Virus record (IMG/VR): IMGVR_UViG_3300042568_000222
DNA: 20,000 nucleotides
Origin: an uncultured virus (IMG/VR IMGVR_UViG_3300042568_000222)
Lineage: Duplodnaviria; Heunggongvirae; Uroviricota; Caudoviricetes; Crassvirales
Direction: 5' to 3' (one strand)
Shown here in pieces: positions 3,001 through 19,588 of this stretch (position 1 is its first letter; each line of letters opens with the position of its first letter). The position numbers and the translations under genes were made by a program. The notes under the pieces are model-generated. The model did no database searches and was not told the origin of the DNA. It worked only from the letters and a program-made list of their open reading frames with translations.

Positions 3001-5782
3001 CTACGAGCGCATCTTCAATCCCAGCAACTTAGACAACGTAACCCACGAGTACGGAGAAGAGTCTGGTGCTATGCAAGACAGGACGCTAAACCAAGGTCCT
3101 GTGAACTCCAGCGAATGGGTTCCTCGCAACCTTAGTTACTTCCAAGAAAGTGTCATCAGCTTTAGGAAGTTCTGGCAATCAAGCATGGCTAGACTTCTGG
3201 ATGTACAGGATCGTATTGTTTCGTCTCAAGGCGATCTCGTTCCTATAGAACAGGACTTCAGATTGCGTAGAGACCTCATGCCTCAGAGGGTAGCATACAG
3301 GCAGGAGGCTGTGTTTGAAAGACTCAACCAATACGCTGAGATGCTGAAGGCTGCAAAGCTTACTAACGAAGATGTACACGCCTATCTCATGCTTGCCCAC
3401 GCAGACGAACGCGATGCCCTCGTGTTGTCTAGAGACGGTATAGAGTTTGGGTCTGGATTAACGCCAGATAGAAGGGTTGAAATGATTGAGCAAATTGCAG
3501 GTAAGGAGGAGGCGATAAAGCCAATCGCAGATATGCTGTATAAGGAGATCAAGATTGCACAGTCTCATCTTGTTGATTATCAGCTTGAAAGCCAAAGCAC
3601 CATTGATGCTTGGAACCAGATGTTCTCTAACTACGTTCCTCTTGATGGTATTGCCGCAGACGAAAGCAGCACGGTTGAGTCGCTGTACCCCAGAGGCGGA
3701 ACTGGTCTTGCTGTTAAAGGCAAGATGTTCAAGAGAATTAAGGGTAGAAAAACGGAGGTAAGCAATATCCCTGCAAACATCTTCAACCTGTCAGCTCAGG
3801 TCATTGCCAAGGGCGAGAAGAACAATGTGATGCAGTCTTTGGCTGCTTTGGTAAACAACAACAAAGCGCCAGAGTTCTGGGAAATCATCTCTAAACCAGA
3901 GTACGAGAACAAGTTGAGCAAGGATGACAAGAAGAAGGCTGTAGAGTTTCGTTACAAGGGGAAGCAGTTCTATGTCTCCTTCAAGGGCAGGTATGGAGAA
4001 AGTCTTTCTAGATCACTCCAGAATATGGATGTTGTGAAGGTGGATAAGTTCTCAAAGCTTATGTCTCAACTGTTTATCAGCGTCATACGTAAGACTACAA
4101 CTACAGCTTCTCCTACGTTCTTTATCCCAAACAGCATCAGGGACTTTGAGCAAGCAATCATCTTTGCGATCAACGAGAGTGAAATCGAAGGAGGCTACAT
4201 CTTTGGTACTGAGTTTGGCACAGGAGACTTTATAAAAGCTACAGCCCAAACTGCTTTTGAACTCTTCACGACAATGAAGAAGGGTAGCATGAAGCAGGAG
4301 TACAGAGATCGGTATGAGGAGTATGTTTCTTTAGGCGGAAAGACAGGCTTTTCTCAAGCAAACAATCTGCAAGATGTAATAGAAAAGATTGATGACCTTT
4401 TGGCTACTGGAACTGCTGCGGACATAAAGAAAATGGGGGCTAAGGTGTACGAGTACACCATCGGGGTAATTGAGAACATAAACGAAAGGTTTGAAGATTC
4501 TATCAGGCTTGCAACTTATATCGCTGCTGTTCGGGCTGGAGCAGACAAGGAGCGAGCGGCTCAACTAGCTAAGAACGTCACGGTTAACTTCAACGAGTCT
4601 GGTGACTTCACCCATACTATGGGTTCTCACTATATCTTCTTTAACGCTGGCGTGCAAGGCGTTCGCAACTCATTCAGACTTCTGACGAAACTCAAGCCGC
4701 CAGTAAAAAGGAACGGTGAATCACGTGAGTGGTATGAGCGGATTAGCCCTGGACAAAAGTCGTTGGCTTCTTTCGCTGCGTTGGGTCTCATGATAACGAT
4801 GTACAACCTGTCCATGTCTGATGAAGACGAGTCTGGCACAGAGGAGTACGCTCAGATTGATGACTTCTACAAGCAGAGATCGATCATACTTATGGGCGGG
4901 GAGAATAGAATTCAAGTCCCTCTGTCTTATGGACTTAGCCCCTATTACAACCTTGGGGTTATTATGGCTGAATCTGCCGCTGGATTGAGGAATCCGTGGG
5001 AAGCCACTGCGTTTATGGCTGAATCAATCATAACTGGCTTCTCTCCCATGTCCATTGCCACAAACTCAGAGACGCTCGAAGGGAAGATTTTCCGCACCGT
5101 TGTTCCATCCTACATCAAGGCGGGTATAGAGAATGCTTTGAACGAGAACTACAAAGGGGAGAAGTTCTTGCGTGAACGTATGCCAGGCGAAACCACCCCA
5201 AGTTCACAGCTCTCAAAGAATGCCCCCGATTGGATGAGGGAGGTGTTTAAGGATATAAATGAACTGACTGGTGGAAGTGTTGAACGATCTGGAGCCATTG
5301 ACGCAAACCCAGACTACATCTGGCACTGGATGGAATCTTACTACGGTGGGCTTGGAAACACCATTGGCAAGACAGCAAAGACTGGAAGGGCTTTGTTTGA
5401 GGGCGCTCCTGTGTCCCCGTATGATGTCCCGTTGATGTCAACTGTGTACAAGGAGAAGTCCCGTACATACCACCCAAGATTGTACAGGGAGCGTAAGCTT
5501 GAGGTACAACAACTGTACGACGAGTACAACAACCCAGAAGCTAGACAGCCAGATCCTACGAAGCAGTTGTATAGAGGTGTCGGAACCTTGAACAACGAAA
5601 TCAAGCAGGTAGAGAAGACGATGAAGGAACTGCGTAGACAAGAGCGTCTGGTGAGAAACTCTATGACGATGGACTATGCAGAGAAGCAGAACCGACTGAC
5701 AGATATAAGAGACGCGCAGTTTAGAGTGTACTTACTATTTAACAAGATGTACAATGAAACGAGAGGGCAGGAAGAAAATTAA
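2..5782 (+). CDS. Giant phage polyvalent / internal virion (ejection) protein, 5'-truncated; GrpE-like segment, HExxH zincin motif, C-terminal LPD38-like domain
   Basis: The frame is open from base 2 (NRPVSISSFG...) with no stop before the ATG at 65, so the true start is probably upstream of the window. NPDVSSPIHEMAHIF (HEMAH at 2738-2752) followed by EMFASGAEKFIHEG resembles the metallopeptidase-like domain of polyvalent proteins. AAQLAKNVTVNFNESG..YIFFNAGVQG, IQVPLSYG and IENALNENYKGEKF resemble LPD38-containing phage proteins. Confidence 0.75.
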   Translation, partial: NRPVSISSFGVSKNGTPIDGDMYLDGQTVVVDDGNTIYELGSAAEILDKPASELGVTSQKSEVTITPDGRFNIEGKNYVSQLDLPTYGIEYDDAGRPFRVSLKEADGEQRMMIEGQKAVDAAYQILLQQAQSPQQAERVNQALEQNEEFQRDYAAAAATRDTDRLAKPRKVVPVAQRKANPVSKTGASAATASRNVRRSFKKVTQDLLTASTPQQTAKALSDYDFLINNNLTPTRQAQKVYDEVKKQFEGQGYTYNDGISIGAEYTPEMAADITELPSNNIPVGKTVVSGIVEPSVTQNGEVVQKAKVVAHTGVGKKKGGKKAMKEEDGVFIAQNKKQMQELLINLFGLPPDQAKAAADVMHNMITVKAKRDGISVEDMYNKIGWTQREDKLNANINDNVPLFQPDLKLPSGISIRYNKNKEAFEILEQDGFITRDKSITDFDGFMAVHQPDDMGALEIADEEDNVIVKGKGGMFWAVLNHGLGHVWAAGNKKAANSFAKLINDAASKTPGGHARLALTSGGKSKNLSNYLSALGIVDTIIYWSNSDKFNVSKDKVRILLNEATLMFEDKLLKKINDPKVDEAEKADMRATLDLLIKANVNPNTPIEQTRALLVEALRPPLSFGDRRLFVDAVFRGINNSIADIESVNQIIGFFRDGMENPYFKTKYQKEGKESYSVPLAALEDGFSWMLAEPYIRDISRNNKGTGYVYAVVEVERPNGMSPTEPLVRARRDDSHEAYPYLIETVNNDINVKLHILKDNMHWQEIFGNPATNDLLYSQDDPYNAAELAELNTIDKLFKDKKSKRGLTKAQKARQEYLKTASRLFPPTSGVSMAPLPIVESVRQKAIAAAQGNPVESTPIKPNYSATQTDNRAEVVDVNGNPVYFQNRRAAVLIQENKYTIFALTNPDVSSPIHEMAHIFEDSLTADERNSVLTWAGHSEWTVETSEMFASGAEKFIHEGVSADPKVKKVFQKFVDWLETIYMGIKGSPLELQLNDDMRAIYERIFNPSNLDNVTHEYGEESGAMQDRTLNQGPVNSSEWVPRNLSYFQESVISFRKFWQSSMARLLDVQDRIVSSQGDLVPIEQDFRLRRDLMPQRVAYRQEAVFERLNQYAEMLKAAKLTNEDVHAYLMLAHADERDALVLSRDGIEFGSGLTPDRRVEMIEQIAGKEEAIKPIADMLYKEIKIAQSHLVDYQLESQSTIDAWNQMFSNYVPLDGIAADESSTVESLYPRGGTGLAVKGKMFKRIKGRKTEVSNIPANIFNLSAQVIAKGEKNNVMQSLAALVNNNKAPEFWEIISKPEYENKLSKDDKKKAVEFRYKGKQFYVSFKGRYGESLSRSLQNMDVVKVDKFSKLMSQLFISVIRKTTTTASPTFFIPNSIRDFEQAIIFAINESEIEGGYIFGTEFGTGDFIKATAQTAFELFTTMKKGSMKQEYRDRYEEYVSLGGKTGFSQANNLQDVIEKIDDLLATGTAADIKKMGAKVYEYTIGVIENINERFEDSIRLATYIAAVRAGADKERAAQLAKNVTVNFNESGDFTHTMGSHYIFFNAGVQGVRNSFRLLTKLKPPVKRNGESREWYERISPGQKSLASFAALGLMITMYNLSMSDEDESGTEEYAQIDDFYKQRSIILMGGENRIQVPLSYGLSPYYNLGVIMAESAAGLRNPWEATAFMAESIITGFSPMSIATNSETLEGKIFRTVVPSYIKAGIENALNENYKGEKFLRERMPGETTPSSQLSKNAPDWMREVFKDINELTGGSVERSGAIDANPDYIWHWMESYYGGLGNTIGKTAKTGRALFEGAPVSPYDVPLMSTVYKEKSRTYHPRLYRERKLEVQQLYDEYNNPEARQPDPTKQLYRGVGTLNNEIKQVEKTMKELRRQERLVRNSMTMDYAEKQNRLTDIRDAQFRVYLLFNKMYNETRGQEEN

Positions 5783-6218: not shown

Positions 6219-7366
6219 TACGGTTCTTTCTCTTGTCGGCGCTCATCACTCTCGCGCAAGTGCTTCCAGCACAAGAAGAGTGTTTTGTGATGGGGCCACA
6301 GGAGGATGTACTTCCAAAGAACCATGCGAAGAATAGAACTGCCTATTCTCAAAAACAAATCAAGTGCGTTGTGCATATCCTTTGGGATACAGCCTTCGCC
6401 AACAGCATGATTCCAGAGGATGTCATTGTTGATGCTATGGATCAACTTAATGTAGACTTCGATGGGACAGACATCTCGTTTACGTTAGAAGACATTGACT
6501 ACACGAACCTGAACAACTTCACGTGGGCATCTTCATACAGAGCAAGTAACGGCGTTTGCTTCCCTCAGTATGGGACGCAGATGGCTCAGTGGACCAATAT
6601 GGTTAGATGGAATACGGCAGAGTACTGCAACATCTACGTTGCCCCAGACCTCTGCTCATCGATCCTTGGTTTTGCATGGGTCACATACCTTCCGTATAGC
6701 GTGTTGGATGGGGTGTGGGTGGAGACGGAGGTGATGGGGACATACGGGCCTCACCTCACATTCAGGTTTGAGAATGAAACTCTTACTCACGAGGTTGGTC
6801 ACTACTGTGGACTGCATCATGTGTTTAAGAACGGCGCAAGCGCCATCTCTAACTGCGGTCAATACCTAGGCCCTTGCGAACACAGCGGAGACTACGTGTG
6901 CGACACGCCTCCTACAAAGGTTAGCCAAGGCTGTCCAGATGTTCCAGGGTATCATTGCCCATTGATGAATTACGGAGGGGTGCAGTTCTACCCCAACAAT
7001 CATATGGACTACTGCCCAGAAGAATGCAGAGACGTGTTTACGGACGGACAGATAGAGCGTATGCACGCCATGCTTGAATACCAGAGGTCTGAATTGTTTT
7101 CTGATGATGTATTCTGTTTTGGTGATCTGAATGGAGATTGCCACGTAGGTACAAACGACCTTCTGGTAATTTTATCAAATATAGGCTGTGAATTCTGTAC
7201 CGAAGGGGACATTGATTTAGACCACATGGTCACGTCAAATGACATACTATATTTATTGAATGTATATGGTCAGCAGTGCAATTGTGACCAGATAATGACT
7301 CCAGAGCTAGTAGGCACAAAGCCAGAGAATATACACGAACTACTTGAAAAACTGAATAGACAATGA
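6215..7366 (+). CDS. Secreted M43 (pappalysin/ulilysin-like) zinc metalloprotease with C-terminal dockerin-like Ca-binding repeats
   Basis: N-terminal signal-like MIRFFLLSALITLAQVLPAQ. Metzincin motif HEVGHYCGLHH (6788-6820), GDYVCDTPP and Met-turn NNHMDY. C-terminal GDLNGDCHVGTNDLL / GDIDLDHMVTSNDIL repeats. ATGA overlaps with both neighbours. Confidence 0.88.
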   Translation: MIRFFLLSALITLAQVLPAQEECFVMGPQEDVLPKNHAKNRTAYSQKQIKCVVHILWDTAFANSMIPEDVIVDAMDQLNVDFDGTDISFTLEDIDYTNLNNFTWASSYRASNGVCFPQYGTQMAQWTNMVRWNTAEYCNIYVAPDLCSSILGFAWVTYLPYSVLDGVWVETEVMGTYGPHLTFRFENETLTHEVGHYCGLHHVFKNGASAISNCGQYLGPCEHSGDYVCDTPPTKVSQGCPDVPGYHCPLMNYGGVQFYPNNHMDYCPEECRDVFTDGQIERMHAMLEYQRSELFSDDVFCFGDLNGDCHVGTNDLLVILSNIGCEFCTEGDIDLDHMVTSNDILYLLNVYGQQCNCDQIMTPELVGTKPENIHELLEKLNRQ

Positions 7367-10300
7367 GACCAAGGAAGCGGTATAAGGTTGGTTATAACGA
7401 GCAGATTAAGGACAACGCCAAGAGCGCATATCTTATTAAAGAATCCCTGAACAAGGGTACGCTGAAGCCGCCATCCGACGCGATGGTCGATCCGTCTGGC
7501 AACCCGTACGTCTTTGCCCTTCCTGCCGCTATTGTTGGGGAGGAGTACACGCGTGACGAACAGGGTAGAATTACATTCTCGTCTCCCCTGCAAAGGAGCA
7601 ACTACTTCTACAACAGGAACCTTGGGGAAGAGGGGATTAGCCAGGCCAGGGAGATGGAGGCATCGGTACGAGAGGGGACTACCAATGCCGTTCAAGGTGC
7701 ATTGCAAGCTTATGCTGCCTTCTCTGAGCCTCTGGGCTATTTGCAGAAGGCGCTGGTTACAGCGCCATTGGCGCAAGCTATGGGCAAGCTGGATGAAGTG
7801 AATCTTAATCCTGTGGCTATGCTTTCTGGGCAAGACCCAGGTATCTCATCACCTTCAGAAGCACTGGGCATTGAGAATCCTATCGGGGCGTTTGCTGTAG
7901 ACGCTCTTACAGACCCATTGAACTTTGCAGGTGCAGGTCTATTATCTGCAATCAGGAAGCAGCGAATGAAGGGCGCTGACATCCCGTTCGATCTGCCAGA
8001 AGGAGTTGGGGGAGGTGGCCCACCTCGAAACCTGCCTAGCGGGGATGGAGGAACCCCGAAGAAGAAGCCAAACAGATACCTCCCAGCACCGCTTGGAGAT
8101 AACGCATTTGTACCTAAGTCATTGATGGATCAGGGTATTTTGGCAAAACAAGCTAGGCCAGACGGAACATTGCCAGCAAGCGCTTTCGCAAACACCATGA
8201 ACAGCGATAACCTATCTGCTGGGGACAAAACATATATCAGGAGAGCTTTAGAGTTAACGCCAGAAGCAGTTAACAATAAGGGAGATGTAAATCTTGATCT
8301 TTTGAGGGTAGCGGTTCACAACCTATATAACCCAAAAGTAACCACAACTGAAAAATTTGCTAATTATAACATAGAAGCTATTAGATCGCCAGAAAGAGGA
8401 TCGATAACATTTGATGGGCTTGAAGCCGTTGACACGAATGATGCGGACCAAGTGCTTGTTGAACTAAAAAACTCTGGCATAAACATAGACGAAGATGTTT
8501 ATGACAATGTAGTTTATCCGCTTACCAGATGGGGAAATAAAAATCTTGTGTTTGGAGATGATTTAACTGGAAACAAGCTGAAACCATTGTCAGATTATAT
8601 CGATCCGTTTTCATTGGTTGAAAAAACGACAAGTCACATGATGGAATCGGTATTTAGCAAGCCATTAACCGATAAAAATGGAAGAAAATTACCAGATAAT
8701 TTGCAAACAACGCTAGGTCCATTCATAAAGTTTGAATATGGAGAATTTGTACCAAATTTTTCTGGTAACTACGAAAGCGAAATATTTCCAATTCTTAGTG
8801 AAGTAGCTGATCATGAACAGAAGAAAGTGATAATAAACGAGTTTGCCAAGTCGGCTAACGACATGAGCTACATTACAGAAAGGATAAGCGAATATGATCC
8901 TGAAGAATTTAGTCAAGTTATTTCTCAATTAGACGAAGATTTATTTTCTCCAGAAAATTCTCAATCGCTTAAAGAAGCTGTAATTGAAAGTCACCCAATT
9001 TTAAGCATTACAGAAAATTTAGACTTTGATTTTGATAATGCGTTTCTTGGAAGGTTGATTTTAAAAAAACTTGAAGACATTGACAATCCAGGGTCTAGGG
9101 CAAACTTTAGAAAACTATTTGACGACGATGATATAAACTATGAGGACATACCAAATGCGTATTTAAAAGAAGAAAGCTATAATTTTGGAAATTTTTTGAA
9201 TTTTTTAATGGATGATCAATCAGATAGTAAGGAAACAAAAGTTTTTAACGCTAAACAAAACGCCATTAATTCGTCTCGGTCTAGATTAGAAACTGCAATT
9301 AGTCGTTTAAATGATTACTATTATGGCTTAGATCATATACAAAAATTAAGAACCGAATTAGGCCGCCAAGTAGAAGGGCTGTCTACTAATGCGTATTTGC
9401 CAGGAGGTGTTAAAAAAGAAATAATTTCGTTTCTTTTAGGAACGTCTAGCAATCCATTCGATCAAGATAATTTGATCACACTTGATATTAATTCAGAACA
9501 AATTAAATATTATGAAAATCCACTTGCATATTTTACTTTAGAAAAAAGGCCAATTGAACACATTGCAGAATATCTAACAGCAAGAAATGGCCGAAATATA
9601 ATGAACGATAATGATGTATACAGCTTTATAGATTTCCTGTCTAAACTGGGGCTTAAAATTCCAGATGGATTAGAGGACCTTCATTTTCAAATAGCTAACG
9701 AGGTTAAAAATGTTGCTATTACGCTTAGCAACATTGAAAGATATTTTGAGAATTCTATGTTAGGTTTAAATGAATTATTTCTTGCCTCTTCAAATAATTC
9801 ATTCTTAAATGCTGAAGTTTCACCTACTAAGCTATCTAAATCGTTAAATTACATAACATATATGTCGGAGACAGCGAAAGCCCTTAAAAATGTAAAACAA
9901 CGCAAGCTGTCACAAAGAAATAAAGCCTTACAAAGCCTTGTTGAGAAGGGCAAAGACCCATCAAAAATAAATGTTGGCAGAACTGTGTTCTTACTTTCAG
10001 CAAATTCGATGTTGACTGAAAGTGGTTTTAGAGGTCCAAAACAATCCGACGTTTTTAACGATGAATTGCAGATGTTTATGCACGAAGGTACGCACTGGAA
10101 AGGCACTGAATCTCCAGAAGCGTGGGGTCACATTAGGGTGAATGTAGACTTAGAATATCCAGAAGTACTTCAAGTGCATGAATCTCAATCTGATTTGTTT
10201 CAAACTGGCAAAAGGTATGTTGAAATGGGGATCAATAGGCCAAGAAGTGAGTTTAATGAGTTTGAGGCCCCGTTTTTAAAGCAATTAAAAGATGTAGAGA

Positions 10301-10755
10301 CATACCAAAGAACACAGCTTTACAAATCTATTCAAATAGCTATAAATAATGGTCAAACACAAATTGCTTATCCCACTAAAGAAACGGCTACCATTATTCA
10401 GGGATACAAAACTCAAGAAGATTGGCGCGATGAACTCGACTTTGACGAAAGAATAAGAAAGGCTTCTACCCCAGTATATCACCTAAAAAGCAAAGACAAT
10501 ACGTTTGATGAAGTAGAAAGCGCCTCTCGTGAAAACATAAGAGAGCGTTATGAAACTCAAGCTAGATTTGCTGCTAAAGAATTAAATGTCACGTTAAGGA
10601 AAGAAAGAATGAGGGGGTACTACTATTACGTATTTGACATCCCAGAGAAATTCTTGAAGAGAGAAGCTGAGATGCCTACGTTTGAAAAGGGTGGTAAGTT
10701 TAAAATAAATAAGATTGTACCCAAGAAGTTCCTTAGGGCCATGAAGAAAAAATAA
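7363..10755 (+). CDS. Large hypothetical phage protein, probably virion/ejected; mosaic composition
   Basis: 1130-aa ORF coupled by ATGA to the protease. GGGGPP linker near residue 216. The C-terminal H...GHIRV...LQVHESQSDLFQ.G motif resembles the 'E.QSD' domain recalled from large phage virion proteins. Ends with FEKGG and a basic tail. Confidence 0.65.
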   Translation: MRPRKRYKVGYNEQIKDNAKSAYLIKESLNKGTLKPPSDAMVDPSGNPYVFALPAAIVGEEYTRDEQGRITFSSPLQRSNYFYNRNLGEEGISQAREMEASVREGTTNAVQGALQAYAAFSEPLGYLQKALVTAPLAQAMGKLDEVNLNPVAMLSGQDPGISSPSEALGIENPIGAFAVDALTDPLNFAGAGLLSAIRKQRMKGADIPFDLPEGVGGGGPPRNLPSGDGGTPKKKPNRYLPAPLGDNAFVPKSLMDQGILAKQARPDGTLPASAFANTMNSDNLSAGDKTYIRRALELTPEAVNNKGDVNLDLLRVAVHNLYNPKVTTTEKFANYNIEAIRSPERGSITFDGLEAVDTNDADQVLVELKNSGINIDEDVYDNVVYPLTRWGNKNLVFGDDLTGNKLKPLSDYIDPFSLVEKTTSHMMESVFSKPLTDKNGRKLPDNLQTTLGPFIKFEYGEFVPNFSGNYESEIFPILSEVADHEQKKVIINEFAKSANDMSYITERISEYDPEEFSQVISQLDEDLFSPENSQSLKEAVIESHPILSITENLDFDFDNAFLGRLILKKLEDIDNPGSRANFRKLFDDDDINYEDIPNAYLKEESYNFGNFLNFLMDDQSDSKETKVFNAKQNAINSSRSRLETAISRLNDYYYGLDHIQKLRTELGRQVEGLSTNAYLPGGVKKEIISFLLGTSSNPFDQDNLITLDINSEQIKYYENPLAYFTLEKRPIEHIAEYLTARNGRNIMNDNDVYSFIDFLSKLGLKIPDGLEDLHFQIANEVKNVAITLSNIERYFENSMLGLNELFLASSNNSFLNAEVSPTKLSKSLNYITYMSETAKALKNVKQRKLSQRNKALQSLVEKGKDPSKINVGRTVFLLSANSMLTESGFRGPKQSDVFNDELQMFMHEGTHWKGTESPEAWGHIRVNVDLEYPEVLQVHESQSDLFQTGKRYVEMGINRPRSEFNEFEAPFLKQLKDVETYQRTQLYKSIQIAINNGQTQIAYPTKETATIIQGYKTQEDWRDELDFDERIRKASTPVYHLKSKDNTFDEVESASRENIRERYETQARFAAKELNVTLRKERMRGYYYYVFDIPEKFLKREAEMPTFEKGGKFKINKIVPKKFLRAMKKK

Positions 10756-10780
10756 AGGGGAGCCGCCGTTGCGGCCCCCC
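10747..10780 (-). terminator. Rho-independent terminator (minus strand)
   Basis: Minus strand reads GGGGGGCCGC-AACG-GCGGCTCCCC-TTTATTTTTT: a 10-bp stem with one G-U pair, then a U tract. On + the same pair is an A-C mismatch, which favours the minus orientation. Confidence 0.8.
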
Positions 10781-10825
10781 TCCTTTGATATCAACAAACA
10801 ACAAACTAGAACGCTATCGTCTAGC
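10750..10825 (-). ncRNA. Candidate ~75-nt phage small RNA
   Basis: Lies between a consensus Bacteroidota promoter (10830-10860, minus) and a minus-strand terminator, and contains no ATG. Ends are approximate. Confidence 0.55.
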
Positions 10826-10829
10826 GATA

Positions 10830-10860
10830 CAAAGATACAGAACACTAACCGCTGCACAAA
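10830..10860 (-). promoter_or_regulatory. Bacteroidota primary-sigma promoter (-33/-7)
   Basis: Minus strand TTTG-tgcagcggttagtgttctg(19 nt)-TATCTTTG, an exact match to TTTG-N19-21-TAnnTTTG. Confidence 0.75.
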
Positions 10861-10879
10861 CCGTTTTATCCACATAAAT

Positions 10880-11029
10880 ATGAAGCTGATCAAGAGAAAG
10901 GATGGGTCGTACTCCAAGAGGGGCCTGTGGGACAACATACGAGCCAACAGAGGATCTGGGAAGGAACCTACGGCAGCGATGCTCAAGCAGGAGCGTAAGA
11001 TCAAGAAGGCAGAAAAGAAAAGGGGCTAA
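10880..11029 (+). CDS. Small basic phage protein (49 aa, GLWDNIRA motif)
   Basis: ATG at 10880 in an A-rich context (cacataaatATG) is a better start than the TTG at 10769, which lies within the hairpin. Sequence MKLIKRKDGSYSKRGLWDNIRANRGSGKEPTAAMLKQERKIKKAEKKRG. Confidence 0.7.
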   Translation: MKLIKRKDGSYSKRGLWDNIRANRGSGKEPTAAMLKQERKIKKAEKKRG

Positions 11030-11037
11030 CGCCCCTT
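11011..11037 (-). terminator. Rho-independent terminator downstream of nrdJ (possibly bidirectional)
   Basis: Minus strand AAGGGGC-GTTA-GCCCCTT-TTCTTTTCT; overlaps the stop of the convergent 49-aa gene. Confidence 0.7.
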
Positions 11038-11082
11038 CTCCAAAGTGATATAGCTGGCTTACCCAGCATTCTGATATCGGCT

Positions 11083-12978
11083 TCATCTCACTGGACAAGC
11101 GCCTGAGTCACAATCTGTGATGTCAACATCGTCGAATTTGATACCATCAATTGATACCAACGGACTTACCATCTCAGACATCCTGTTGTATTCTTCTTCC
11201 GTGATTTCTTCCAACGGGGCCTGATCGAACCCATGGTCGTTATGAAGCAAGAAGGAAACTGTCTTGACGTTGGGGTAGTTGTTAACCAGCCACGCCTTGA
11301 TTTCATCCAACTCTTCCAGTCTGTAGTAGATGGTTACAGACACTGCGTTATCTGACCACTCTTTCTGCAAACGCTTGATAACCTCAAGCTGATCCACAGC
11401 GGTCATGTCCTTTGCCAGCTTGGTCCCATCTGGGAACTTACATGGGAAGCTTACTACCTCTGTGCTGTGGTCCTCCGTGCCGTCGAAGTTGCGTACAAAC
11501 TCTACTGGATAACCAGCGTCCTTTGCTGCTCTAACAAGAGGGCTATTTGAGGCCATCCTAACTCTTCTGATGTAGAATTGGCTATAGGCAGGATGTGCGC
11601 CTGGTGTAACGCCAGCGAGAAGACTAAGTGTTCCAGATGGCTTAACCGTGGTGAGCTTAATGCTTCTATTGAATCCAATAATGTTAGAGTATTCTTCATC
11701 GTATGCTCTGATGTATACATAGCAATCGCTCAACCATGAACGCTGCTCTTCTGTGGCCTGAAGATAACCAGTAACCCCAATGCCCATGCGCATATTCTCA
11801 TGCACAATCTGCTCTGTTTCTTCTACGGCACATTTGATTGCCAGGCTGTGCTTGTTGATTCGGTACAGGTATCTGACTACCTTCTTCAGTTCTGCGTATG
11901 ATGTGATGTTCGGGAGGTATACCTCTGCGAGGCAGCACGTCTCAAAGTTTGCAAGGCTCTGCTCTGCACACGGGTTAAACCCTTGAACGTCTTGGTCAGG
12001 GTATTGGGTCTCACCTGTACGCCCCATCCGACGCGCGGCATCCAAGTTAATCAACCCATATGGCTCTCCGTTGCCCTTGTAGCCCTCCCAGAACTCTTCT
12101 GGCAGGTCATTGATGTTGGAGCACACTACGCTGTTGTTAGACATGGCTCTCCAGTTCGGGATGTTGCCAAGGTCCCAACGCTTTGCACGCAGGTAATCGA
12201 TGTCGTCAGCATCTCCGATAGCAATCTGTGCAGAGCGCCTTACGTTACCAGCCACCACGATTCTGCCAATGATGTTCATGATGTCTAGGCAGTCTGTAGG
12301 AGTCAGGTACTCACCATTCTTTCCGTTCAGCAGCTTGTTAATTTCCATCATGCCCCACACGAGGTCCTCTGGGCCACTGGCCACACCCCCGAATCCTTTG
12401 ATAGGAGAGCCTTTAGAGCGAATCAAATGCGTAGCGAAGGTGAACCCCTTACCAGTAACAAACGAAGCCTCCAGCACCTTCTTAAGCAGCTGAACCCACC
12501 CTTCTCTGCTGTCGGGGACAATGAAGTCAGCATCGTTTTGATCTACACGCTTAATCTCTACGTTCTCGTATGGGTTTGCCAAGTATTTTACGTTGTGTCT
12601 CTGGATGTTGAATCCAACCCCACTACCCAGCATAAGCATCTCAAATGCCCACGTAAAAGGACGGATCTCTTCGTCTACCACTACGAAGGCGCAGTTCTGC
12701 AAGGAAGGGAGTCCAAGCTTGTCTACGGTCTCTGTGCCAAGCTGCCACAGGAACCTCCCAGCTACAGTTCCTTTGAGGCTGAGCATGATGTCACGAACAT
12801 CTTGCTTCTCTGCTTCATTGAAATCACATCCAAGCTGATCGTTGCAAGCATTTACCACGCGTTCAACGGTCTCATGCCATTCTTCTGTTCTGTTGTCAAT
12901 GGCTCTGGCGTAGGTTCTTTTGAAGACGGGGTAACCTACTTCCCCCCACGGAATCGTGGACGAATTAACAGTGTTCAT
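11083..12978 (-). CDS. nrdJ: Class II (adenosylcobalamin-dependent) ribonucleotide reductase, monomeric RTPR type
   Basis: AGRFLW, LQNCAF, VAGNVRRSA, catalytic GFNPCAE, CCLAE, TTVKPSGTLS and C-terminal redox pair CDSGACPVR. Confidence 0.95.
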   Translation of the reverse strand: MNTVNSSTIPWGEVGYPVFKRTYARAIDNRTEEWHETVERVVNACNDQLGCDFNEAEKQDVRDIMLSLKGTVAGRFLWQLGTETVDKLGLPSLQNCAFVVVDEEIRPFTWAFEMLMLGSGVGFNIQRHNVKYLANPYENVEIKRVDQNDADFIVPDSREGWVQLLKKVLEASFVTGKGFTFATHLIRSKGSPIKGFGGVASGPEDLVWGMMEINKLLNGKNGEYLTPTDCLDIMNIIGRIVVAGNVRRSAQIAIGDADDIDYLRAKRWDLGNIPNWRAMSNNSVVCSNINDLPEEFWEGYKGNGEPYGLINLDAARRMGRTGETQYPDQDVQGFNPCAEQSLANFETCCLAEVYLPNITSYAELKKVVRYLYRINKHSLAIKCAVEETEQIVHENMRMGIGVTGYLQATEEQRSWLSDCYVYIRAYDEEYSNIIGFNRSIKLTTVKPSGTLSLLAGVTPGAHPAYSQFYIRRVRMASNSPLVRAAKDAGYPVEFVRNFDGTEDHSTEVVSFPCKFPDGTKLAKDMTAVDQLEVIKRLQKEWSDNAVSVTIYYRLEELDEIKAWLVNNYPNVKTVSFLLHNDHGFDQAPLEEITEEEYNRMSEMVSPLVSIDGIKFDDVDITDCDSGACPVR

Positions 12979-14185: not shown

Positions 14186-14217
14186 CAAAGTTACAGACTT
14201 TTTCGTTGAAAGTCAAA
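14186..14217 (-). promoter_or_regulatory. Bacteroidota primary-sigma promoter, probably leaderless transcript
   Basis: TTTG-actttcaacgaaaaagtctg(20 nt)-TAACTTTG-ccca-ATG; fills the whole intergenic gap. Confidence 0.75.
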
Positions 14218-16002
14218 TTATATATTTCTGTCGAACTCACGATACACATCGAACTGATTTGTAATGGGTTGGAATAGTCCACCTAAAGTATTGCTTGAGG
14301 CAAAACCAGTCATTGTGGAGTTTATGTGGAACAATAGCGGCTCATCGATGGGTGTAGGCTGTCCTCCAGTTTTCACTTCACGCACCTTACGTACATGAAT
14401 CTCAGTGCTTTTGCGTATCGCAGGGTCGGGAGATTGGATCTTTCTGTGAATGGTCAGGAACCCGTCTGCACGGTTAACAAACTTTCCACCACCCTCTGTG
14501 TCTTCTGCGTAAGGAGCTACAGGAAGGCCGTCATCTCCCTTCCTACGTTGGGCTTCTGTAACAGCGTGCATATTGAGCCATACAGCCACGTTGTGGGCCT
14601 TGCTGAACGTAAGAAACTCAGAAGCAGCTTCGTAGTGGTAGTCGTGAACCCCGATGCTGTTTGATTTCATAGAAATCTTCAAGCTATTGTAGGGATCAAT
14701 AAAAACTGCATCCACCTTGTCGTAGCGCATAGTCTTCTCCATGAACATGATCAAGTCGCCATAGGAGTACGTCTCGTTGTTCTTGATGATAGTGAAATGC
14801 TCGTTGACGTACTTGTAGGCAGTCTTCCTTTGGTCGTAGTTCATGTCAATCAGTTTCCGCTGCGTACAGAACTCCATCAGCGTCCCCTTGAGTGACCACG
14901 TGCTGTTCTCGCTGCTGTACACGAGCCACTTCCAATTGTGACGGATGGCAGCGTTCACCATCAGGTATAATACCATCGTAGTCTTACCTACGTTGCTGTG
15001 ACCATTGAAGATGACGAACTCGTTCTTGTACCTGAAGTACTCGTCCATCCTGATATCACCTGTATCCAATCCAATTTTAATCTTCCCCTCTGCAAACTCA
15101 TTGATCAGGTGGAAGTCGTTGTTGTCGCTACTGATGAATGACATATCCCCATCGTTGATTCGCATCTCACGTTCAATAGAACGCTCGTCGCTAACCAATT
15201 CGTGGATCGGTGTAGTCCTGCCATATTCGATGCCTTGGCGTATCGTGTCAAGGGCTGTGCTTTCAGAATCTACATCCCGTTTCTGTATCTCACGGAACAA
15301 GACCCTGACCACCTCGTCTTCTTCCATCCTCCCCACGCCTACGTAACCGCCACATAGCTTGGCTGCCTTTAATAGCGTGTGGTGCTTCTGCCCATCTTCT
15401 GCCTGGCGGATCATCTTCGCTGCCAGGTTCAGCTTCATGTAGTCGGTGTATATCTCCGTAGAGGTAACCGCCTGTTCTGTTACGGAACCAGCAAGACCAC
15501 CATACAAAGTACTTCCTTCGTTGATGACGATGTTTGGGTCGTACGATTCAAAGCAAGCCCGTGATTCATTGATCCCAGTCTCGTCTACGTACAACCCGTA
15601 AGTCACATCGAAATACTTCTTCAATGACCTGAAGTGATCCCTGTGGCGCTCTGGGTTGGTAATCTTCACCAGCACCTTGAGTCCATTGCCCGAAGGGGAT
15701 ACCCAACACGAATAGACGTACTGATCCGTAGCTAGGATGTCCTTGGATTGGGACACGTCAATCTTGTCAAAGTCAAGTACGATGTATCCGCTGTGTTCCA
15801 CCATGGCATCGTCTTCACGAGAAGTAAATTCTCCGCTAAACAATACCACTGGGAGCAGCATCTTATCGTTCTTCTCACCTTCACGCACCCTCTCCACCGT
15901 CTCCCTGCTCGTACCATCCTTGATACGCTTCAGGGCAGTCTCCATCCATATGGTATGGGGCTGCGAGGTGGAGTAGATGTTCTTGAATATCGTGACCTTC
16001 AT
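14218..16002 (-). CDS. Primase-helicase: BT4734/VirE_N-like AEP primase, PriCT-like linker and SF4 (DnaB-like) helicase
   Basis: LPVVLFSGEF..R, HSGYIVLDFD, WVSPSGNGLK and SRACFESYDP (BT4734-like). Walker A GHSNVGKT and Walker B VFIDPYN. Start placed at the ATG at 16002 (ATGA overlap with the upstream gene). Confidence 0.85.
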   Translation of the reverse strand: MKVTIFKNIYSTSQPHTIWMETALKRIKDGTSRETVERVREGEKNDKMLLPVVLFSGEFTSREDDAMVEHSGYIVLDFDKIDVSQSKDILATDQYVYSCWVSPSGNGLKVLVKITNPERHRDHFRSLKKYFDVTYGLYVDETGINESRACFESYDPNIVINEGSTLYGGLAGSVTEQAVTSTEIYTDYMKLNLAAKMIRQAEDGQKHHTLLKAAKLCGGYVGVGRMEEDEVVRVLFREIQKRDVDSESTALDTIRQGIEYGRTTPIHELVSDERSIEREMRINDGDMSFISSDNNDFHLINEFAEGKIKIGLDTGDIRMDEYFRYKNEFVIFNGHSNVGKTTMVLYLMVNAAIRHNWKWLVYSSENSTWSLKGTLMEFCTQRKLIDMNYDQRKTAYKYVNEHFTIIKNNETYSYGDLIMFMEKTMRYDKVDAVFIDPYNSLKISMKSNSIGVHDYHYEAASEFLTFSKAHNVAVWLNMHAVTEAQRRKGDDGLPVAPYAEDTEGGGKFVNRADGFLTIHRKIQSPDPAIRKSTEIHVRKVREVKTGGQPTPIDEPLLFHINSTMTGFASSNTLGGLFQPITNQFDVYREFDRNI

Positions 16003-16229
16003 TTCCTGTACTTTTTTGCCATGTCTAAATACCACTTAGCCTTTTCAAGATCCCTTTCTACAGGCTCGTTCGGCTTGCTTCCCAAACGGATCTTGTACTT
16101 GAATGCATTCATCTCACAGAATGCCACAAACTTCTCTTCCCCCCATATGTCAAGCATCATCTCCCACGCTTCCTTGGAGAAGTCGTTGTAGTGATCTGGG
16201 CTGTTTACGTATTCGTAGGTTTTTTCCAT
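15999..16229 (-). CDS. DUF3310 family protein
   Basis: VNSPDHY...FCEMNAFKY..R.G.K....DLEKAKWYL signature. Confidence 0.9.
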   Translation of the reverse strand: MEKTYEYVNSPDHYNDFSKEAWEMMLDIWGEEKFVAFCEMNAFKYKIRLGSKPNEPVERDLEKAKWYLDMAKKYRK

Positions 16230-16462
16230 AACAGTTTGCTGTTTACGATATCATTGATAATCAGTTTCTTCTCTCCTTTGTGTGTCTTTGGATAGCATTG
16301 CGAAAGCATCCTTGACATAGCCAATGGGTCATCTAGGATGTCCAAGATGTCGTTTGAACGCGAAACGCACCACACCTCCTTCTTGGAGTATTGTCCCTTG
16401 GCCGATCTCTTGTACGAAACTATTAGTTCGTTGTAGTAGAGTGTGGTTGCTCGATCCTCCAT
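16205..16462 (-). CDS. Hypothetical protein (85 aa)
   Basis: Tiles the operon with short overlaps; no recognisable motif. Confidence 0.6.
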   Translation of the reverse strand: MEDRATTLYYNELIVSYKRSAKGQYSKKEVWCVSRSNDILDILDDPLAMSRMLSQCYPKTHKGEKKLIINDIVNSKLLWKKPTNT

Positions 16463-18475: not shown

Positions 18476-18542
18476 TGAAATGAATTAAAATGACGCTGCA
18501 AGTTGCAGCAGTTGTTTGTTGTATGAAAGTCTTTAACCTTTT

Positions 18543-19433: not shown

Positions 19434-19488
19434 AATAGTCACCAGCCAGAGTCGCAATAGTCACCAGCTAGAGTTAATAGTCACCAGC
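19434..19488. repeat. Three direct 13-bp repeats AATAGTCACCAGC
   Basis: Identical copies at 19434, 19456 and 19476 (periods 22 and 20 bp). Confidence 0.95.
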
Positions 19489-19494
19489 CTCTTT

Positions 19495-19588
19495 AGGTAG
19501 ACCATCAAGCCATACGTTCAGTAGTTCAACCAATCCGTTGAAGGTAGACCATCAAGCCATACGTTCAGTAGTTCAACCAATCCGTTGA
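19495..19588. repeat. Perfect 47-bp tandem duplication
   Basis: AGGTAGACCATCAAGCCATACGTTCAGTAGTTCAACCAATCCGTTGA at 19495-19541 and 19542-19588. Confidence 0.97.

Follow-up and report, generated by a model that had tools for sequence, protein, structure and literature searches.

Small regulatory RNAs of phages are, to our knowledge, known almost only from phages of Proteobacteria. The sar RNA of P22 is a small antisense RNA whose promoter lies in an intercistronic region and which is complementary to the spacer before the next gene, covering the ribosome-binding site of ant, and the OOP RNA of lambda has a size of about 77 nt. In T4, the proteins RegA and RegB recognise a short motif common to the start regions of many early messages and turn these messages off. 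PMC5869508 describes the OOP unit (pO-oop-tO) as overlapping the end of cII and proposes that the resulting hybrid is cleaved in an RNase III-dependent manner. For Bacteroidota, PMC7366714 describes translation that starts without Shine-Dalgarno (SD) pairing, a lack of Hfq, and an RNA control of translation that is still being worked out; the hallmark of the validated intergenic small RNAs (sRNAs) of Bacteroides is, in its account, a start site together with an intrinsic terminator, and their conserved single-stranded seed pairs with SD-less start regions. Here, we analysed a stretch of 20,000 nt (the window), which is part of an uncultured Crassvirales virus (IMG/VR IMGVR_UViG_3300042568_000222). 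Positions 10747-10860 on its minus strand hold a promoter-to-terminator unit that lies where the early and late gene arms converge (10756-11082), and which an original prediction made from the sequence had proposed as a phage sRNA. We favour reading this unit, at about even chances, as a phage-encoded gene for a base-pairing sRNA, and consider it rather likely that a discrete RNA is made from it. The family is most likely new, small (five records) and of a known kind.

Like lambda OOP, the unit is short, carries a promoter of its own for the host polymerase and a hairpin terminator, opposes a phage operon, and overlaps the 3' end of a gene and the spacer behind it. Unlike OOP, it belongs with another host phylum and another promoter type and has no sequence or Rfam relation to it; it overlaps the upstream coding region by at most about 9 nt and mostly faces a late-arm intercistronic spacer instead of a lysis-lysogeny regulator, and the expression and effect of its RNA are predictions from the sequence. 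With Bacteroides intergenic sRNAs such as GibS, the unit shares a primary-sigma promoter, an intrinsic terminator and the absence of an open reading frame (ORF), but it is phage-encoded and much shorter, its seed is a low-complexity run of only G and U, and its targets are candidates only. The likeness to P22 sar lies in the intercistronic promoter and the complementarity of the RNA to the spacer before the next gene; in contrast to sar, the predicted 5' end of the RNA is about 55 nt upstream of the ATG of that gene, an ORF of 49 codons. Rfam, where the original prediction had suggested looking for relatives, returned none: in release 15, the whole window had 0 matches at the gathering score, with five sub-threshold rows in 10700-11100 (E 0.18-8.9). 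The GibS model (RF04182) reached 17 bits against a gathering score of 115 (E = 5.8), so the unit is not a member. No CRISPR-repeat similarity appeared among the sub-threshold rows of 10700-11100, no search dedicated to it having been made. Among the papers listed by the literature searches, none dealt with small RNAs of Bacteroidota phages, which is not proof of absence.

The promoter pattern can be read directly from the minus strand at 10860-10830, where TTTG-N19-TATCTTTG is an exact match, as originally predicted, to the Bacteroidota primary-sigma consensus (TAnnTTTG and TTTG) given in PMC7366714. On both strands of the window, the full pattern TTTG-N17-21-TAnnTTTG occurs three times against 0.37 expected, a number reached by 2 of 200 shuffles; the -7 octamer by itself is not enriched (14 versus 13.5 expected). 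The other two full matches, at 14217-14186 and 19155-19125, are located 4 and 13 nt before minus-strand start codons of the early arm, which argues that the full pattern marks working promoters in this phage and agrees with the host-type promoter that had been proposed for the unit. SD-like words precede the start of only 1 of the 21 window genes, in keeping with the Bacteroidota-type initiation that had been assumed and that PMC7366714 describes. Because SD-like words are nearly absent and the Bacteroidota primary-sigma pattern is enriched, a host of the Bacteroidota type is likely. The genome collection searched for a host contained no relative of the primase-helicase gene of the window. At the resolvase-like gene, the promoter (14186-14217, minus strand) ends 4 nt before the ATG, and TGTAACTTTGCC(C/A)AATG is kept at its homologues (L001, L007, L011 and L064), distant relatives included; since the promoter stops this short of the start codon, the message of that gene is probably leaderless.

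Behind the -7 box, the minus strand reads UAUC-GCUAGACGAUAGCGUUCUAG-UUUGUUGUUUGUUG-AUAUCAAA, followed by GGAGGGGGGCCGC-AACG-GCGGCUCCCCUUU (10783-10754) and AUUUUUU. The terminator hairpin and U tract that had been noted before are therefore present, the hairpin comprising 13 pairs, of which nine are G-C. There is indeed no ATG across 10826-10747 on this strand; the only frames that cross the unit are a TTG-started antisense ORF (10594-11004), which runs through the terminator, and a TTG-started plus-strand frame (10769-11029), which contains the 49-aa ORF. The predicted fold of the 80-nt minus-strand RNA, at -33.6 kcal/mol (z = -4.2), has a 5' hairpin and the terminator with an open middle between them; none of 200 shuffles was as stable, and the plus strand gives -24.3 kcal/mol. 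RNAalifold, unaided, returned the same fold at -31.1 kcal/mol with a covariation term of -3 and left the G/U run open, in line with the unpaired GU-rich stretch of the original prediction. For the reverse strand it gave -20.2 kcal/mol and a covariation term of -0.75, with three terminator pairs that become A-C or C-A there. Both hairpins are terminator-like on the minus strand only and, owing to their G-U wobbles, both predicted helices work on that strand only. A bidirectional terminator was ruled out, because the hairpin contains an A-C mismatch on the plus strand, where UCCUUUGAUAUC comes after it instead of a U tract. The G/U run is one of only two runs of at least 14 nt on the minus strand of the window that consist of A/C or G/T only. 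The further terminator behind nrdJ that had been proposed was found at 11038-11018. As the reductase gene thus has its own terminator 235 nt upstream, the second one-way terminator would be best explained by a promoter between the two.

We took the 80 closest reductase loci, out of 329 relatives, from viral contigs and found the unit in three of them (L007, L011 and L064); the locus L001 ends 111 nt past the reductase gene, so the presence of the unit is not decidable there. A metagenome scan contributed one more record, L167, a near relative of L064. The five unit-bearing records fall into two lineages, lineage A with the window (G001), L007 and L011, about 88% identical across the gap, and lineage B with L064 and L167. 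In lineage A, L007 and L011 each match the window at 46 of 46 nt over the two promoter boxes, start zone, G/U run, linker and U tail, and the promoter changes fall in the spacer and not in the boxes. The three changes in the 5' hairpin amount to one loop change and one pair exchanged from C-G to U-A, and one of the two terminator changes of L011 turns C-G into U-G. The 5' hairpin GCUA/UAGC that had been drawn originally loses a pair in L007 and L011 and had to be replaced by CUAGACG/CG(U)UCUAG, which the relatives keep. Lineage B has a different 7-bp hairpin (AAGCUAA/UUAGCUU) right after the expected start and (GUUU)n in place of the G/U run, and then a terminator with two pairs swapped on both sides and three wobble changes. 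The conservation of promoter and seed that had been looked to is thus found for both within lineage A, while in lineage B it holds for the run and not for the promoter, which is degenerate.

The covariation expected among related phages was found across these records. In an alignment of four sequences, 97.5% of 80 cells pair and six pairs are changed on both sides, which none of 500 shuffles reached; slid controls on the same alignment gave 49-56% paired. For the 13 terminator pairs, all 52 cells are paired in the four sequences, with three pairs changed on both sides and five on one side through G-U wobbles. We consider this evidence from two lineages modest but consistent. In the complete 69-kb genome of lineage B, the unit is again placed exactly where a 15-kb early arm meets an opposite-strand arm of 53 kb. 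Further searches did not enlarge the family: blastn of 10400-11400 against deposited phages gave no match, an exact 26-mer and two degenerate patterns recovered from viral contigs none beyond those already known, the genome collection contained 0 matches to the unit, and the model R1, run across 170 sources, retrieved the five known records and otherwise only weak terminator-like matches of 21-33 bits. Two lake sequencing runs showed no variant inside the unit. The coordinates are collected in Table 1.

Table 1. Features of the unit and of related loci in the window, with nucleotides identical to the window in the lineage A records L007 and L011.
Feature	Position	Strand	Identity in L007 and L011	Remarks
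-33 box TTTG	10857..10860	minus	4/4	GTTG in L064
Promoter spacer, 19 nt	10838..10856	minus	15/19	
-7 box TATCTTTG	10830..10837	minus	8/8	consensus TAnnTTTG (PMC7366714); TATATTAG in L064 and L167
Predicted transcription start	10825..10826	minus	4/4 (start zone)	placed from a motif centred at -7 (PMC7366714)
5'-terminal hairpin CUAGACG-AUAG-CG(U)UCUAG	10806..10824	minus	18/21	inner C-G to U-A in L007 and L011
Single-stranded G/U-only run UUUGUUGUUUGUUG	10792..10805	minus	15/15	candidate pairing module; unpaired in consensus fold
Linker AUAUCAAA	10784..10791	minus	6/6 (10784-10789)	
Terminator stem-loop, 13 pairs (9 G-C), loop AACG	10754..10783	minus	30/30 (L007), 28/30 (L011)	ranks first among the terminator-like sites of the window
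U tract UUUAUUUUUU and predicted 3' end	10747..10756	minus	9/9 (U tail)	complement carries the stop codon of the 1130-aa gene
First early-direction terminator	11018..11038	minus		directly behind the reductase gene; covarying stems kept in relatives
Class II ribonucleotide reductase gene	11083-12978	minus		early arm
1130-aa late-arm gene	7363..10755	plus	95-96/116 (end of gene)	no Pfam or PHROG family; stop codon 10753-10755
49-aa basic ORF, last late-arm gene	10880..11029	plus	133/150	start MKLIKRKDGSYSKRGLWDNIRAN; no Pfam or PHROG family
Candidate trans site	16233..16254	minus		-25..-4 of ORF 15999-16229; lead only
Candidate trans site ACAACAAACAAC, erf leader	18511..18522	minus		35 nt before ATG; lead only

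The surroundings of the unit give its RNA a partner in cis. The original prediction had described a self-contained unit without an ORF from promoter to terminator, which stands, but the unit is not alone in its gap: the 49-aa ORF on the plus strand adjoins it at 10880-11029. This gene had been overlooked, and with it the antisense relation to the late-arm spacer. The promoter pattern falls in a gap of 124 nt, with its -33 box at a distance of 20 nt from the ATG of that ORF. The unit, with its own promoter and terminator, opposes plus-strand genes on either side (a stop codon at 10753-10755 and the ORF from 10880), and because a plus-strand gene adjoins it, the RNA would be perfectly antisense to the spacer before the last late-arm gene. 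No plus-strand promoter pattern was found in the gap; with neither a plus-strand promoter nor a plus-strand terminator in the gap, a late transcript that reaches the 49-aa gene would have to cross 10747-10860, and we infer that late transcription does read through the spacer. The 49-aa ORF is kept in 7 of 7 aligned loci and immediately follows another late ORF in those relatives that lack the unit, which assigns it to the late operon as the last gene. Its relatives (loci L082-L161 included) are encoded in 294 of 320 matched viral stretches, either as stand-alone genes of 44-68 aa or, in other phages, as part of larger proteins whose length ranges from about 130 to 970 aa, so that it looks like an undescribed and widespread phage domain. 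The 1130-aa protein is 57-77% identical within lineage A and 32-35% identical to its lineage B homologue, with conserved ends and a variable middle. Its gene co-occurs with the unit, as relatives lacking the gene lack the unit; profile searches based on its C- and N-terminal parts brought in L179 as the sole addition, and L179 is without the unit.

Elsewhere in the window, the plus strand encodes late-type genes, among them a polyvalent protein of about 1,900 aa with an LPD38 domain, a holin and an M43-like peptidase besides the 1130-aa protein. The minus strand encodes genes of replication and nucleotide metabolism: MazG, Erf, an exonuclease, a primase-helicase with a BT4734-like domain, the resolvase-like protein and the class II ribonucleotide reductase. 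Near the start of the early arm (19434-19588), there are tandem repeats, three copies of about 19 nt (AATAGTCACCAGCCAGAGT-like) followed by two perfect copies of 47 nt, which could be iterons or operator sites. DNA of the phage is present in lake-water metagenomes, with half or more of the sampled words found in 18 DNA data sets. Two wastewater runs labelled RNA-Seq, which are probably DNA, contained scattered near-identical pieces, none of them on 10747-10826, and we concluded nothing from them. One of these pieces is a 178-nt contig that matches 10848-11022 with one mismatch; it spans just the 49-aa ORF and the 32 nt ahead of it, and is too uncertain for an interpretation.

Because antisense action in cis alone does not explain why a G/U run is kept across lineages, we tested the idea of A/C-rich targets. 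The best non-self duplex in the window was found at 16233-16254 (-21.5 kcal/mol against a background of -10.9 +/- 2.8), and 13 of 1000 shuffled seeds reached it. As a conserved target this site was rejected, because L169 and L170 have a U-to-C change that makes the pairing weaker and lineage B lacks the site, which counts against the sRNA reading. The early leaders were suggestive. In the complete lineage B genome, CAAACA, AAACAA, AACAAA and ACAAAC are the top enriched hexamers (6-9 fold) in the 30 nt before 27 early-arm ORFs; they are the exact complement of (GUUU)n, while the other arm prefers runs of A. Complements of 9-12 nt to the G/U run, among them perfect ones of 10-12 nt, occur in both lineages in the leaders of erf and of a conserved early gene of 286/293 aa, and a AACAAACAAC or CAAACAAAC word is kept before erf in G003 and G002. 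Several early genes of G002 (L172-L175) share the promoter-leader cassette TCTTTG-TCTCA-(CAAAC)n-ATG, at 946-963, 1989-1999, 4564-4572, 67106-67114 and 68371-68381. When the seed of lineage B was run against its own genome, no duplex site stood out. Of the originally proposed pairing between a U/G seed and A/C-rich leaders, the complements in phage leaders could thus be found, but the shuffled-seed controls, given below, lent them little weight.

Taken together, these observations are consistent with the following course of events. Host RNA polymerase would initiate near 10825, using a consensus primary-sigma promoter like those that drive the early genes of the phage. The transcript, of about 78 nt, would consist of a short protective hairpin, an unpaired run of only G and U, and the strand-specific intrinsic terminator at which it stops near 10747. 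Its mode of action would be base pairing, with the open G/U run as the pairing part. The late-arm transcript is the only complement that is certain: any late message long enough to include the 49-aa gene would pair with the RNA in an extended duplex, and its tail would then be expected to be cleaved or to change in stability or translation, on the pattern of lambda OOP. As a second action, the RNA might pair in trans with (CAAAC)n-like leaders of early phage messages. We regard action in cis as possible and action in trans as tentative; the two are not mutually exclusive, and their probabilities overlap.

Several observations weigh against a base-pairing sRNA. The RNA itself is a prediction from the DNA sequence, and antisense action in cis would not by itself need a conserved G/U run. 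Of the 80 closest reductase loci, 77 lack the unit, as do 78 of the 80 loci examined for the 49-aa ORF, and it is therefore dispensable for most relatives; only two independent lineages with five records carry it. In lineage B, the promoter is degenerate (GTTG-N19-TATATTAG). A -33 box of the form xTTG is normal there, as the promoter of the resolvase gene has CTTG, but the relaxed TTAG variant of the -7 box, TATATTAG, occurs four times in the 69-kb genome with no tie to genes, which makes independent transcription of the unit in this lineage doubtful. In L019, a G/U-rich stretch and a similar terminator lie behind the reductase gene with neither a promoter nor a 5' hairpin (32.5 bits, E = 0.003), so run and terminator together may represent a terminator module that predates the promoter. 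The pairing energies of each seed with the leaders of its own genome were matched by 12 of 1000 and 51 of 1000 shuffled seeds. Five of the 27 early start regions pair at -12 kcal/mol or better, compared with 2.1 for shuffled seeds (29/400), and the mean over the early start regions does not differ from that of shuffled seeds (112/400). Moreover, seeds and leaders from different lineages bind as well as own pairs, and thus do not co-vary. L019 also has a stretch at 3199-3300 that looks tRNA-like by eye, after the reductase gene and ahead of the G/U-rich stretch and terminator.

The main rival explanation is that 10783-10754 is a fail-safe second terminator of the early arm, which stops early-direction transcription from entering the late genes, while the promoter is idle, vestigial or very weak and the G/U run is merely terminator surroundings. 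Tandem terminators would be sensible at a convergent junction, and this explanation, to which we assign a minority share of the probability, would readily account for the degenerate promoter of lineage B next to a retained run and terminator, for the arrangement in L019, and for the many relatives that do without the unit. However, a perfect promoter pattern is unlikely to arise by chance in a gap of 124 nt, given 0.37 expected in 40 kb, and L007 and L011 keep both of its boxes intact despite four changes in the spacer. A plain terminator also has no need of a start-proximal 5' hairpin, which is kept through a compensatory change in lineage A and as a different hairpin in lineage B, and relatives that have the first terminator only have no back-up at all. 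If the promoter does matter, the RNA could still be a by-product, with the promoter acting as a roadblock or collision site that limits late read-through antisense to the early genes, or tuning the 49-aa gene by interference. The promoter does face the oncoming late arm, 20 nt from the ATG of the 49-aa ORF, and there is no obvious stop for late transcription, as neither hairpin is terminator-like on the plus strand. Such a role leaves the conserved sequence and structure of the 5' hairpin, the G/U run and the terminator unexplained, and in lineage B the promoter is the least conserved part of the unit; we consider it improbable.

A function on the plus strand appears more improbable still. The spacer would then be the leader of the 49-aa gene, with an A/C-rich run and hairpins that serve translation, processing or stability of the late message, and the minus-strand features would be incidental. 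On that strand, the spacer resembles the early leaders of these phages in being rich in A and C and poor in G, and the 49-aa ORF, having no promoter of its own, would be read from a transcript that crosses the spacer. The G-U wobbles of three records, however, turn into A-C mismatches on the plus strand, the consensus fold is less stable there (-20.2 versus -31.1 kcal/mol), and a U tract follows the hairpin on the minus strand only. In addition, the A/C run is located 73 nt before the ATG, too distant for a start-region motif, and the promoter would be left without an explanation. Finally, the segment might be a DNA-level element at the junction of the arms, such as a replication, packaging or protein-binding site. 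In the complete 69-kb relative, the unit does lie where the two arms converge, and a GATATC-plus-AAACA(A/G)CAAAC word recurs, inverted, at 16233-16253. This second copy is not conserved, though, there are no iterons at the unit, the tandem repeats of the window lying at 19434-19588, and the one-sided, wobble-compatible changes point to RNA and not to duplex DNA. We regard an element of this type as very improbable.

Within the favoured reading of the unit as an sRNA gene, a bolder version, which we consider unlikely, would make its RNA an "anti-leader". Made under a host-type promoter where the early arm has its far end, and with two hairpins to lend it stability, the RNA would accumulate; its G/U run, complementing the (CAAAC)n words in early leaders including those of erf and the 286/293-aa gene, would shut off early translation, and the RNA would in addition clip the tail of the late transcript in cis. 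T4 RegA and RegB serve as a functional analogy for this version only, because the agent here would be an RNA complementary to the (CAAAC)n leader word instead of a protein. If true, early shut-off, which in T4 is protein-based, would here have an RNA-based counterpart, in a phylum that initiates translation without SD pairing. The case is limited by the narrow distribution of the unit, with its five records. Nevertheless, with a G/U module, a guaranteed partner in cis and a small number of candidate leaders, the unit may offer a small and cheap test system for RNA-based control in Bacteroidota and their phages.

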